Below are positions 26,698 to 59,355 of a stretch of DNA of 64,000 nt, piece after piece. Position numbers and translations under genes: made by a program. Below the pieces are notes generated by a model. The model did not search any database and had not been told where the DNA came from. It worked only from the letters and a program-made list of their open reading frames with translations. The stretch comes from Eledone cirrhosa. Its lineage: Eukaryota. Location: assembly GCA_964016885.1 (NCBI GenBank), contig OZ024745.1:27342001-27406000 (forward strand). Direction: 5' to 3'. Each line of letters opens with the position of its first letter. The stretch's first letter is position 1.

Positions 26698-26790
26698 TTA
26701 TTCATTTTCAAATCGATGATAACTGAAGTTGCCGCTGTCTTCATCATCTGTGTACTTGCTGCTTTCTTTCTGACTGTGGCTTAATATTGC
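26698..26790 (-). CDS. SLC18 transporter terminal coding exon ([30 protein letters not shown])
   Basis: cttctccag|GCAATA... TAA. Begins AIL like the VMAT last exon and has an acidic patch; minus-strand AATAAA at about 26593-26598. Confidence 0.85.
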   Translation of the reverse strand, partial: AILSHSQKESSKYTDDEDSGNFSYHRFENE

Positions 26791-56700: not shown

Positions 56701-59355
56701 ATAAGTTCCACTTGAGAAGTAAACCAGCAGCTCGTTTACATTCAGTTTTATACTCGTATCATTGCCATAATATTGGTTTTAGGTTTTACAATGGAAATCT
56801 AGGATTTAGCAGCATTAACATTAGAAAAATAACAGCAAATATTCCTTCACATCGAGTTCCTACACTGTGTTTATTCTATGTTTGCTGCTGCGGTTATAGA
56901 ATTTGTTAAAACAGTTTCAAAATTACATTGTAGACCACATCCAAAAGAAAGACCAGATAATTCATACAGACTCACTCAACATCCCGCTGCACACTCTAGG
57001 GAGGGCCTCTATACTAGTTGTGAAATGTGGGGACATACATGCCTTAATTGTCACTCTTATCCATGGGTACAAATCAAATCCGTGAAAACTCTGCCTACCC
57101 AGATCAGAAATCAATGGATCTTCCTACCACTACCACAGAGACATCCCCACTCTCCCTCAGACGAGCGAAAAACGGGTCCACACAGTCGTAGAAGCAGCCC
57201 TATCACTAAATGCCCTTCCGTTCACGTGATGTTACGCACCTCTTCATATTTCTGGCAAGGCTCCTATAAACTCAAATTAGTAAATACCAAAATGGGCACC
57301 ACCACCACCATGAGGGCGCATTCCAGCTCTCTACACTGTTCAAATCCCACCAAGGTCAACTTTGTTGTTCATCCTTTCGAGGTCAATAAAAAAACAGTAC
57401 CAGTTCAGTACTGGGATCAATTTTTCCTATACACATCTTTCTCACTTCCTCATTCTCTCTCTCTCCTTCACTGGAAGAAATCACCTGTGTTCAGACAGAC
57501 CTGGAGAGGGTATGGGCTCTGCCAGGGTTAAATTGTCCAAGAAACACCACCATGTGTCATCATGACACCCCTATAACTCCATCATGAGTTACAGGTCCTT
57601 ACATGACACACTGTATCTCACTATGTCACCCCTACGACTCTATCAAGAGTTACAGGTCCATACAAGACACACTCTATGTCACCCCTATGACTTCATCAAG
57701 AGTTACAGCTCTATACATACATATGTGTATAAGTCCTGAGATTTTGGTTATATCTGTTTTAATCATTCCTAAATCATCTTAATATAGGGATTGTTTCTGT
57801 GAAGACATGTGACTTAGTAATTAAGGCCCCTTCAGCAGGAAAGTAGAGGAGTCGTTGAAAGTCAGAAAGGGATGAATTCAGAATTTAAAGAGCAGAAACA
57901 AATACTGCAATGACGCCCTACCCGATTTTGCTAATCGACCACCATTACAATGCAATTTAGAATAAAAGCTTCACACACAGAAATCGAATTTGTAAACATC
58001 ACACAAGCAATATAAACATTATGCAATGGAATATTGACGGCGTTAAAATCATCTTTATGGAACTAAAAGATTGTATTACTACGCACGACATTCACGAATA
58101 TGTAAGTCAAGAAAATTAATTCCACTCAGATTAAAGTAGACCAGGGTTTCCCAGCCTGGGCGATATCACGCACCGGTCAACGATTTCAACTGTTGGATAA
58201 CTGATGAGCAACAGAACAGAAAATGATGGGTGATTGGAAATGTGGTGGACGATATAGAATTTTGAGTATCAAGAAGGTATTTCAACATATACTACCCCCA
58301 ACAATATATATATATATATATATATATATATATATATATATATATATATATATATATATAGAGAGAGAGAGAGAGAGAGAGAGAAAGAGAGAGAGAGAGA
58401 GAGGGGTAGAACACTGGAAGGTAATATCCGTAGTGGTAGAGCATTCAGTCCATGGGACGAGTTTGGTAGAAGTAGTAACACAACAGTTAGTTCACCATAC
58501 CGAGAACAATTGTTTCACCTTATACGGATCTTCAGCTCGGATTACCAGTTCGAACTGAAGATCCGCATAAGGTGAAACAATTGTTCTCGGCATGGTGAAC
58601 TAACTGTTGTGTTACTACTTATATATATATATATGTCAACATGAATGGAACCTGTTATTTTTATCTAAAGACATTTTTTCCAATTCCATCCCGCCCGTCC
58701 CCTCAATCTAGTTTATTTCTCATTCTTTCTTCTAATGAAGGACTATATCAAGCGTTAACCTAATATATACCTTCCATATACTGTACCGATTGTGTTGTTA
58801 TTTCTGTTTACCTACATACAAATATATATATATATATATATATATATATATATATATATATATATATTCAAAGAAACTATATATATTAAAAAAAAATCCA
58901 ACAGGAGGCTAAATGGGAATAACGAACCAGTAATAAACACTTACCAAAGAATTTTGGTATTCTTTTGAAAATGTACTGTACAGGTGGGCAGTGGAAAATG
59001 TTTCCACGTGAAAGTGAATGATGTCGTAAAAAATGGCTGGAAACACCTGGACAAAACCTTTCATAGCGGGGAATGGGTTGGGCGGATTATATAACATAAA
59101 ACATATAAAAGTTAGGTCTCTACTGTTTTTACTGATCCATCACATGGGACCACTATAACATATGTACATTAGTGGAGAAATAGGAATTTTTTGACATTCG
59201 ATGTATGATAGTTTCGAATTGGAATTCGAAAGATGAATTGTGACATAATTGTGCATACGTACCCAGAACACCGGCTGCTGAACCACCCATTGCAATACCC
59301 ATAGCTTTGCTGCGTTCTTTATCTTCCGGGTATTTTTCGGCAATCATACCCATTC
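26698..59355 (-). CDS. Spliced gene (12 exons visible, 5' part missing): SLC18-family vesicular amine transporter, portabella-like/VMAT-like
   Basis: Exons 59263-59355, 52986-53075, 49361-49401, 47394-47457, 46251-46346, 43551-43629, 40312-40363, 38759-38822, 37024-37143, 34277-34322, 30954-31041 and 26698-26790 are all AG/GT bounded with compatible phases (926 nt in total). Joined translation: [308 protein letters not shown]. This is colinear with VMAT from the end of TM4 to the C-terminus. Confidence 0.93.
29513..29858 (+). mobile_element. Full-length SINE family B copy in the last transporter intron
   Basis: GGCACATGGCTTAGTGGTTAGAGC head to (GAT)n tail. Confidence 0.85.
30560..30820 (-). 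mobile_element. RTE (BovB-like) RT fragment
   Basis: AFVDLEK.FDRVP...WW.LRK..VE.WLVRAV motif on the minus strand. Confidence 0.7.
30954..31041 (-). CDS. SLC18 transporter exon, 88 nt ([30 protein letters not shown])
   Basis: taatag|GTTAC...GGTA|gtaagt; [15 protein letters not shown]12 motif. Confidence 0.92.
32830..33080 (-). mobile_element. LINE RT fragment
   Basis: YEKAFDSI and RGARQGD..FP.MF motifs. Confidence 0.75.
33608..33803. mobile_element. Mariner-type MITE
   Basis: ~30-bp TIRs TATGAGGGTCGGCTAAAATGTTCATAGGCTGA / TCAGCCTATGAACTTTACAGCCGAATCTCGTA with TA ends; solo TIR near 60105-60136. Confidence 0.7.
34141..34214 (+). pseudogene. Degenerate tRNA-like sequence ending in genomic CCA
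   Basis: A box TGGTGTAATGG, D stem GTGT/GCAC, perfect T arm GTGTG-TTCGAGT-CACAC and canonical spacing. The acceptor and anticodon stems are mispaired. Confidence 0.45.
34277..34322 (-). CDS. SLC18 transporter exon, 46 nt ([15 protein letters not shown])
   Basis: ttacag|GTCCA...TTAC|gtaagt; GPS.GG.I.K.IGF-like. Confidence 0.88.
36506..36566 (+). ncRNA. Hammerhead motif copy 4
   Basis: TATTTTAT-CTGACGA-AAGCGTACCA..TGGTACCATT-GAAA-TATGTA-TA-ATAAAATA; the change falls at the variable N7 position of CUGANGA. Confidence 0.68.
36848..36908 (-). ncRNA. Hammerhead motif copy 5 (intact, sense to the transporter intron)
   Basis: Minus strand: TATTTTAT-CTGATGA-GGGCGTACCAA..TTGGTACCCTT-GAAA-TATATA-TA-ATAAAATA. 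Confidence 0.72.
37024..37143 (-). CDS. SLC18 transporter exon, 120 nt ([40 protein letters not shown])
   Basis: ttacag|GTATC...TTAG|gtagta; LVD.RH..VYG.VY motif of TM10-11. Confidence 0.95.
38759..38822 (-). CDS. SLC18 transporter exon, 64 nt ([21 protein letters not shown])
   Basis: ttccag|TTGCC...TTAG|gtaagt; IPFA..I..LI.PNFG.G-like. Confidence 0.92.
38906..39035. mobile_element. hAT MITE nested in a SINE head
   Basis: TIRs CAGCGTTTCT / AGAAACGCTG; degenerate 8-bp TSD ggttaggg/ggctagag; the SINE resumes on both sides. Confidence 0.7.
40312..40363 (-). CDS. SLC18 transporter exon, 52 nt ([18 protein letters not shown])
   Basis: ttccag|GTGGA...CTCT|gtaagt; RWLCAL.GM.I.G-like TM9. Confidence 0.9.
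40835..41850 (+). mobile_element. Helitron/Helentron derivative with a PIF1-helicase C-terminal remnant (41160-41489)
   Basis: [25 protein letters not shown] / GQTF..IGIDL...CFSHG.FYV..SR / NVVYPEVL, frameshifted; outer bounds approximate. Confidence 0.75.
42275..42633 (+). mobile_element. Head-to-tail dimer of SINE family A
   Basis: Two complete cores joined by AATTATATTAATTGGCAG; similar dimers at 47793-48198(-) and 61328-61701(+). Confidence 0.85.
43551..43629 (-). CDS. SLC18 transporter exon, 79 nt ([26 protein letters not shown])
   Basis: tttcag|GCTTA...GAAG|gtatat; YLIGTN.FG motif of TM8. Confidence 0.94.
43714..44168. mobile_element. RTE-clade LINE 3' fragment with a 5' inversion, in (TA)n
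   Basis: 43714-43900 minus: [23 protein letters not shown]...[11 protein letters not shown]; 43902-44168 plus: [10 protein letters not shown]...[11 protein letters not shown]. Confidence 0.9.
45164..45402. mobile_element. Asymmetric palindromic element in (TA)n (copy 1; others at 52369-52585 and 58406-58620)
   Basis: ~80-bp inverted arms CACAACAGTTAGTTCACCATACCGAGAACA... plus an ~70-bp one-sided extension. Confidence 0.8.
46251..46346 (-). CDS. SLC18 transporter exon, 96 nt ([32 protein letters not shown])
   Basis: ttctag|GAGCC...ATAG|gtgagt; LEP..PIW...TM...KWQ motif of TM7. Confidence 0.94.
47394..47457 (-). CDS. SLC18 transporter exon, 64 nt ([21 protein letters not shown])
   Basis: ttacag|TTATC...TCTG|gtaagt; DPYILIA motif. 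Confidence 0.92.
48310..49310. repeat. Compound minisatellite: unit CACACGTATATATACTCAGCCCCCCACACAGACAAACA plus variable (AT)n/(CA)n, about 12 copies
   Basis: Directly visible; it explains the spurious 413-aa ORF. Confidence 0.9.
49361..49401 (-). CDS. SLC18 transporter exon, 41 nt ([14 protein letters not shown])
   Basis: tttgtcag|TTCTG...GCAG|gtaagg; phase 1 to phase 0 fits both neighbours. Confidence 0.82.
49662..49813. repeat. Compound (GTT)n(CTT)n trinucleotide microsatellite
   Basis: Directly visible. Confidence 0.95.
51171..51472 (+). mobile_element. 5'-truncated copy of the same RTE LINE as 43714-44168
   Basis: Near-identical sequence; 3' end runs into (TA)n. Confidence 0.9.
51599..51664 (-). 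ncRNA. Hammerhead motif copy 6, core disrupted by a 2-nt insertion (CTGAGATGA)
   Basis: Same element flanks and stems as the other copies. Confidence 0.5.
52986..53075 (-). CDS. SLC18 transporter exon, 90 nt ([30 protein letters not shown])
   Basis: tttcag|CCGGC...TCCA|gtaagt; matches GPPFGSVLYEFVGKTAPFL..D. Confidence 0.92.
53991..55378 (+). mobile_element. 5'-truncated R4/Dong-like non-LTR retrotransposon (CCHC zinc knuckle + RLE), frameshifted
   Basis: RLY..RK.GGRGL, MHG, AIQEQEI.T, CRLC..E...H, RHD.VA, HNRPDI, VEVSCP and PVIIGALG motifs; flanked by (CATA)n on both sides. Confidence 0.88.
57560..57715. repeat. ~55-bp tandem repeat, 3 diverged units
   Basis: ATG(A/T)CACCCCTA..ACT..ATCA(A/T)GAGTTACAG unit. 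Confidence 0.75.
59263..59355 (-). CDS. SLC18 transporter exon, 93 nt ([31 protein letters not shown])
   Basis: ttgcag|GAATG...CTGG|gtacgt; matches VMAT GMGMLASVYTDDEERG.AMGIALGG. Confidence 0.93.

Follow-up and report, generated by a model that had tools for sequence, protein, structure and literature searches.

The closest described relatives of the gene examined here are the vesicular monoamine transporters VMAT1 and VMAT2 (SLC18A1 and SLC18A2), the vesicular acetylcholine transporter VAChT (SLC18A3) and Drosophila portabella (prt), listed as SLC18A4 (PMC13205867); what is said of published work refers throughout to the accessible portions of the sources. Work on VMAT2 proposes D33 and E312 as the proton sites that drive transport, has serotonin held at its amine by N305, and assigns D426 to a gate with N146; the D426N exchange abolishes dopamine and serotonin uptake (PMC12721464). 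Amine binding by N305 is also treated elsewhere, in an account in which D426 takes no part in binding and serves as hinge and proton site, and S338 touches a hydroxyl of dopamine (PMC11695631). In a third account, D426 and K138 belong to one network on the N side, the cavity is lined by K138 and R189, and a second water wire runs along N388, S338, E312 and N305 (PMC10959523). The literature searched treats prt as an insect orphan; the Kenyon cells that contain it are called cholinergic, and the orphan status still stands there (PMC6894929). Here, we describe a gene in a 64,000-nucleotide stretch of the Eledone cirrhosa genome (GCA_964016885.1, contig OZ024745.1, positions 27,342,001 to 27,406,000; hereafter the window) that, judging from its sequence, is almost certainly the octopod orthologue of prt.

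An initial annotation of the window had already proposed a prt orthologue instead of a VMAT. This is borne out by three trees, which place the window protein in one clade with Drosophila portabella at 99-100% support. A tree of 51 hand-picked rows unites fly prt with the window protein and the other spiralian proteins in one clade (support 99/97), which divides into spiralians (97/93) and ecdysozoans (100/97), as expected of orthologues. To avoid circularity, the eight columns that separate the prt clade from VMAT and VAChT were removed from a 29-row alignment, and the clade still received 100/99, the same value as under LG+C20 (24 rows). A topology with the spiralian members on the VMAT side and prt left out was rejected in approximately unbiased (AU) tests (p = 0.011 and p = 0.0005). 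The monophyly of VMAT itself is less firm (79/93, 99/98 and 83/80). A fast tree of 172 rows, selected from 398 at a core cover of at least 60%, recovered a prt clade of 60 rows with local support 100. For 33 of the 59 clade rows other than the window protein an organism is recorded, in each case a protostome; the remaining 26 have no organism assignment, so that deuterostome membership is left unjudged. The prt gene is, on these sequences, at least as old as the protostomes. The best trees place the duplication before the protostome-deuterostome divergence, but an origin on the protostome stem is also compatible with the data in the AU test (p = 0.125).

The reach of the clade was also seen in database searches. 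The 505-amino-acid (aa) Octopus vulgaris protein P0002, found with the exon that covers transmembrane helices (TM) 10 and 11 and labelled "synaptic vesicular amine transporter-like", was used as a query. Among the best 120 of its 635 matches, the top ones (chiton, gastropods, bivalves and nemerteans, and also Limulus) have GYP, PDS, PH, DAA and the TM11 Gln in common. A profile built from 22 of these relatives was run against 1.84 billion representatives (best 150 matches listed). Among 30 proteins that were looked up, the members came from insects (blowfly, planthopper, flea, mosquito, beetle), crustaceans (prawn, lobster, Daphnia, copepod, barnacle) and other animals (mite, scorpion, tardigrade, Owenia, Mytilus, Gordionus and Romanomermis). 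When the blowfly protein served as query, matches bearing the name "putative mushroom body vesicular transporter portabella" were returned, and D. melanogaster Portabella Q9VCJ5 (P0397) belongs to the same cluster as the D. simulans match. The chelicerate, tardigrade and crustacean members bridge the gap between the spiralian proteins and fly prt. The initial annotation had envisaged a gene shared by insects and molluscs; both are indeed included, and the clade is broader, with nemertean, annelid, chelicerate, crustacean, tardigrade and nematoid proteins. We also observed further divergent SLC18A lineages with altered acidic residues, such as the P0185 group (Acanthaster), P0153 (Sparganum), P0241 and others, which fall outside VMAT, VAChT and prt.

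The window holds, on its minus strand, a 12-exon part (exons 5-16) of an intact 16-exon SLC18 gene. The model was obtained by mapping P0002 onto the window and the adjoining genome stretch L025, in which a genome search placed exons 1-4 (aa 1-198) 4.7-9.4 kb beyond the window end; these four exons encode Asp39, Lys133, Gln137, Asn141 and Arg184. The spliced model has 505 codons in a 1518-nt frame with a terminal stop only, GT-AG borders at 15 of 15 introns, and 89.9% identity to P0002 over 505 aa. The interval first outlined, 26698..59355, runs exactly from the start of exon 5 (59355) to the stop (26698). A six-frame search located all six motifs on the minus strand (GYPLGG at 53073, AMDS at 52998, FVPDS at 43621, PHFG at 38786, ITDAA at 37141 and YSISQIA at 37066), and LEP and the TM7 Thr, likewise read earlier, are present at positions set by the gene model. 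The exons and key codons are as follows, with the window count continued for exons 1-4.

73360-73222, minus strand: exon 1 (L025)
72037-71728, minus strand: exon 2 (L025)
70604-70546, minus strand: exon 3 (L025)
68782-68699, minus strand: exon 4 (L025)
59263..59355, minus strand: exon 5, aa 198-229, end of TM4 to TM5 (P0002 mapping)
52986..53075, minus strand: exon 6, GYPLGG (Tyr231 at the VMAT2 Pro236 site) and AMDS (Asp257) (motif search and gene model)
49361..49401, minus strand: exon 7, end of TM6 and central loop (P0002 mapping)
47394..47457, minus strand: exon 8, central loop and start of TM7 (P0002 mapping)
46251..46346, minus strand: exon 9, TM7 with Thr300 (Asn305 site) and Glu307 (equivalent to Glu312) (mapping and alignment)
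43551..43629, minus strand: exon 10, TM8 with FVPDS, Asp332 (Ala337 site) and retained Ser333 and Tyr336 (motif search and model)
40312..40363, minus strand: exon 11, TM9 (P0002 mapping)
38759..38822, minus strand: exon 12, start of TM10 with PHFG, His383 (Asn388 site) (motif search and model)
37024..37143, minus strand: exon 13, Asp394 (equivalent to Asp399, TM10) and Gln421 (Asp426 site, equivalent to fly prt Gln521, TM11) (mapping and alignment)
34277..34322, minus strand: exon 14, end of TM11 (P0002 mapping)
30954..31041, minus strand: exon 15, TM12 and start of the tail (P0002 mapping)
26698..26790, minus strand: exon 16, cytosolic tail with acidic DDED and terminal YHRF, stop TAA (mapping and tail comparison)
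53070, minus strand: codon Y231 (gene model)
52992, minus strand: codon D257 (gene model)
46329, minus strand: codon T300 (gene model)
46308, minus strand: codon E307 (gene model)
43612, minus strand: codon D332 (gene model)
38783, minus strand: codon H383 (gene model)
37135, minus strand: codon D394 (gene model)
37054-37052, minus strand: codon Q421, CAG (gene model)

The replacement of the TM11 Asp by Gln, which the initial annotation had noted, stands: the exon-13 alignment sets YSISQIAV on YAIADVAF of human VMAT2, with Gln421 at the Asp426 site. Gln also occupies this site in P0001, P0002, P0003 and P0401. Since it recurs in these proteins and in 176 of the 180 clade rows that have a letter there, neither chance nor an assembly error accounts for it. 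(P0003 is a short, spliced-looking protein.) Public contigs, in three sets from one sample, match only the intronic repeats around exon 13 and none of its key codons; very high-copy short repeats lie on either side of this exon (window 36830-36980 and 37153-37330).

Residues were counted, in VMAT2 numbering, over 189 clade rows, which are insect-heavy, and 93 VMAT rows, mostly from vertebrates; 118 of the 189 came from the insect-dominated list of the blowfly query and were placed in the clade on rank and motif, and only in part by tree. The window protein retains the VMAT2 residues Asp33, Asn34, Lys138, Gln142, Asn146, Arg189, Glu312, Phe334, Ser338, Tyr341, Asp399 and Tyr433. Across the clade, D33 (170/171), K138 (178/180), R189 (183/184), E312 (185/187), F334 (181/181), S338 (181/185), Y341 (181/185) and D399 (178/182) are kept. 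The clade-wide changes are P236Y (184/186), N305T (169/187), A337D (180/182), N388H (177/182), D426Q (176/180, with Glu in 3), F429V (174/180) and F135L (165/179), along with S340G, while Asp426 and Asn305 are invariant in 93 of 93 VMAT rows. Fly prt (P0397, Q9VCJ5, NP_001097887.1) has Y319, T389, D421, H472, D483 and Q521 at the matching columns. D39 (TM1), D394 (TM10) and Q421 (TM11) of the window protein align with fly prt D59, D483 and Q521, numbered from P0397, which we take to be the residues treated in the original prt paper and thus the published signature. Two features read earlier turned out to be present and of little diagnostic use. The TM6 Asp was rejected as a marker of the clade, as it occurs in only 30 of 180 clade rows and is Ser in fly prt; the TM10 His alone (PH for PN) was rejected too, as the canonical VMAT of the same genome reads PHIA. 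A literature search on VMAT2 A337 yielded no relevant paper, judged by title.

Compared with fly prt, the octopod protein is shorter (505 versus 602 aa), is 35-39% identical, keeps the TM6 Asp and a dileucine-like motif, and is without the TM10-TM11 insertion of prt; in common are the clade, the Tyr (TM5), Thr (TM7), Asp (TM8), His and Asp (TM10) and Gln (TM11), and a terminal tyrosine motif plus an acidic tail. With VMAT1 and VMAT2 it shares the predicted fold, about 42% identity, intron positions and the D33, K138, R189, E312, Y341 and D399 network. It differs from them in D426Q, N305T, P236Y, A337D, F429V and F135L, and it falls outside the bilaterian VMAT clade. Gln421 and Thr300 thereby replace Asp426 and Asn305, which are required for monoamine uptake by VMAT2 (PMC12721464). 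The SLC18A fold and the acids of TM1, TM7 and TM10 are common to VAChT, and the two genes may be co-expressed by analogy with fly Kenyon cells; however, VAChT carries Trp at the F334 site, His at the Y341 site and the TM11 Asp, none of which the window protein has, and the latter lies outside the VAChT clade. SLC18B1, a precedent for polyamine cargo in vesicles according to the part of the literature consulted, belongs to the same SLC18 family and is very distant (E value 5.5e-6 versus 6e-124 for VMAT2). By E value only, the window protein is set apart from SLC18B1 and closer to SLC18A.

A genome search with exon 13 returned four places, namely the window gene, one on contig C2 and two on contig C12. 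The gene on C2 is a multi-exon canonical VMAT with DNML, GPPFG, NMGIAMLEP, FLPAS, MVDSS and YAIADVAF, and the window gene is therefore not the VMAT of this animal. Its intron positions agree with those seen in that VMAT. On C12, an intronless open frame of 627 codons groups with VAChT; in contrast, the window gene is multi-exon. Coexistence with a canonical VMAT and a VAChT in one genome is thus found here, as looked for in a prt. The other place on C12 (G000:C12:44851886-44869734, minus strand; L028-L030 and L002) holds a fourth, strongly divergent multi-exon SLC18 gene. It is close to Argonauta P0214; the Asp399 site holds Ser, the Glu312 site lacks Glu, and TM11 retains its Asp. In the fast tree, P0214 is the partner of a Capitella protein, an unsure placement given the long branches.

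The fold predicted for P0002, which is 90% identical, is VMAT-like, with 12 helices and a mean predicted local distance difference test (pLDDT) score of 86; its best matches are VMAT1 and VMAT2, and the top ten have root-mean-square deviations of 1.6-3.4 A. A half-to-half profile alignment (probability 98%) sets F135 on F334, K138 on A337, Q142 on Y341, R189 on N388 and L225 on D426. The Asp and His gained at A337 and N388 hence lie at the mirror sites of K138 and R189, and both would face the cavity beside E312. The TM8 Asp had been suggested to compensate for the charge lost in TM11. Net charge is indeed restored, but elsewhere, as the Ala337 site pairs with Lys138 and Asp426 with Leu225; the TM8 Asp is likely a new cavity acid and not an in-place substitute for Asp426.

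We propose that the protein is probably a proton-driven vesicular antiporter for a small basic amine, one that is probably not among the usual VMAT monoamines. In such a transporter, Asp39 and Glu307 would remain the proton sites that power the rocker switch, Asp394 would anchor the amine of the cargo, and Gln421 would retain the TM2-TM11 hydrogen-bond hinge in uncharged form. Asp332 and His383, cavity-facing next to Glu307, would make a second polar sub-site, and the cargo would probably bear a further group that is basic or forms hydrogen bonds, in the manner of an imidazole or diamine. The components of this proposal differ in strength. Vesicular proton/amine antiport as such is quite likely, a cargo outside the VMAT monoamine set is slightly favoured, and a cargo of dication or imidazole type is a tentative suggestion. 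Dileucine, acidic and terminal YxxPhi tail motifs have a role in vesicle sorting. A dileucine-like ESVAIL spans exons 15 and 16 of the window gene where VMAT2 has EKMAIL, and the terminal YxxPhi motif occurs in 30 of the 34 clade tails examined. The tail fits vesicle sorting, and its motifs would direct the protein to regulated vesicles.

Several observations weigh against parts of this picture. Plain BLAST does not favour prt, given about 42% identity of the window protein to VMAT2 versus 35-39% to fly prt; it is the trees and the shared residues alone that decide for prt over VMAT at the sequence level. The placement of Asp332 and His383 in the cavity is deduced from symmetry. The 179 cases in which the TM8 Asp and the TM11 Gln occur jointly represent one inherited event and not independent ones. 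Neither the TM8 Asp nor the TM10 His alone marks a new cargo, because the VMAT of this genome (L045:1245-1388, G000:C2) shares the His of the Asn388 site with the prt clade, and the mackerel protein P0136 has the Asp. The latter (P0136 and P0403, Scomber scombrus) is a VMAT-like fish protein that groups with vertebrate VMATs, with an independently gained TM8 Asp, a Glu in place of Asp399 and an unchanged TM11 Asp. Within the prt clade itself, the TM11 site carries Glu instead of Gln in P0144 (Owenia) and P0176 (Lepeophtheirus). The Kenyon cells in which fly prt is enriched express VAChT too (PMC6894929), which weakens the premise, taken over by the initial annotation, of a separate transmitter system. 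Finally, we found no transport, localisation or expression data for the window gene or any molluscan orthologue in the literature searched.

The pocket could also be that of a prt orthologue carrying a known amine with narrowed specificity, most likely histamine (or a histamine conjugate, tyramine or octopamine), which we regard as rather unlikely. Histamine binds VMAT2 through E312 and Y433, without a hydrogen bond to N305-D399-Y341 (PMC12721464), and the clade retains E312 and Y433, has lost N305, and keeps the dopamine-hydroxyl contact S338. However, P236, a key residue for VMAT2's affinity towards histamine (PMC12721464), is Tyr in 184 of 186 clade rows, the same genome has a canonical VMAT, and fly prt is still an orphan enriched in cells described as cholinergic (PMC6894929). 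An auxiliary vesicle protein that tunes the filling of cholinergic vesicles, by proton/cation exchange or removal of competing cations, and has no transmitter of its own is somewhat less probable again. It would suit the presence of prt and VAChT in the same Kenyon cells (PMC6894929) and the arrest of monoamine uptake in VMAT2 D426N (PMC12721464); in addition, an "opponent" vesicular transporter, VST-1, exists in C. elegans, and Portabella was named a candidate for such roles (10.1101/2021.03.20.436253). On the other hand, the amine-binding residues D399, Y341, E312 and Y433, like the new Asp and His, hardly vary across protostomes, as would suit selection for one specific ligand, and fly prt was undetected in two other VAChT-transcribing neuron groups, so that it is no general partner of VAChT (10.1101/2023.03.01.530653). 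A divergent molluscan VMAT duplicate made prt-like by convergence, as a raw identity to VMAT that exceeds the one to fly prt, the intron positions matching the genome's VMAT and the recurrence of single signature residues in VMATs might suggest, is scarcely credible and already contradicted, as the clade holds without the diagnostic columns and under a site-mixture model, the AU tests reject it (p = 0.011 and 0.0005), and chelicerate, tardigrade and crustacean members bridge the gap.

The altered pocket has stayed the same in molluscs, nemerteans, arthropods, tardigrades and nematoids, which suggests a conserved orphan vesicle cargo or function, and many invertebrates likely load an orphan small amine into their secretory vesicles, as far as sequences tell. 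The window gene adds a member to an orphan family already known, and its value lies in the protostome-wide extent of that family and in its fixed, rebuilt pocket. A bolder version, which we consider speculative and on balance improbable, is a third protostome vesicular amine system besides monoamines and acetylcholine, in which a dication- or imidazole-type transmitter would be loaded through the Asp-His-Glu sub-site in interneurons of learning centres (fly Kenyon cells and octopus vertical-lobe amacrine cells). If true, prt would be a shared marker and co-transmitter system of fly and octopus learning centres, and this third amine system would have been kept since the protostome common ancestor or earlier. 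An octopus brain atlas has linked vertical-lobe cells to gamma Kenyon cells (PMC9712504), and the octopus gene would allow a direct test of this proposed likeness. The accessible text of that atlas has no mention of prt or vmat, and the gene was not found in the cephalopod atlas supplements examined (PMC9712504, covered in part, and PMC9815951). Snail orthologues (Lymnaea P0015 and Biomphalaria P0033) would make the cargo accessible to single-cell mass spectrometry in large identified neurons.

Automated VMAT labelling, which the initial annotation had predicted, does occur: NCBI names molluscan members "synaptic vesicular amine transporter" or "-like", because raw identity is higher to VMAT2 than to fly prt. 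Genes named VMAT automatically in mollusc atlases may therefore be prt and may mis-mark cells as aminergic. In a squid atlas, the names Vmat2-2 and Vmat2-4 were given by top database match (PMC12240821). The squid "Vmat2-4", which is not tied to any sequence, has no fly or human orthologue and marks photoreceptors and pigment cells (PMC12240821). Two family-wide phylogenies describe only VMAT, VAChT and SLC18B groups, with prt absent from the portions of text available (PMC10244343; 10.64898/2026.10.09.757917). A bivalve preprint, as far as accessible, reports a single VMAT in all protostomes analysed and uses fly and bee portabella only as outgroup; its species, Mytilus galloprovincialis, has a prt-clade protein, P0133 (XP_076105674.1). 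An aphid preprint treats prt as a monoamine transporter, without a transport test in the part available. In the literature searched, mainly open-access and accessible in part, with the original prt paper outside it, we found no report of a non-insect prt orthologue and no account of the pan-protostome reach of the family, which orthology databases may already group. That original paper, Brooks et al. 2011, may itself refer to orthologues from outside the insects.

Outside the exons, several intronic frames resemble decayed retroelement pieces, at 32813-33292 (minus strand), 43851-44288 (plus strand), 51131-51586 (plus strand) and 54276-55154 (plus strand). The first of these has a weak RVT_1 match (E value 0.0055), and no Pfam match was obtained for the two others of them that were tested. 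At 9263-9733 of the window (plus strand), an open frame with a DUF4371 match (E value 1.4e-7) is probably a fragment of a DNA transposon.

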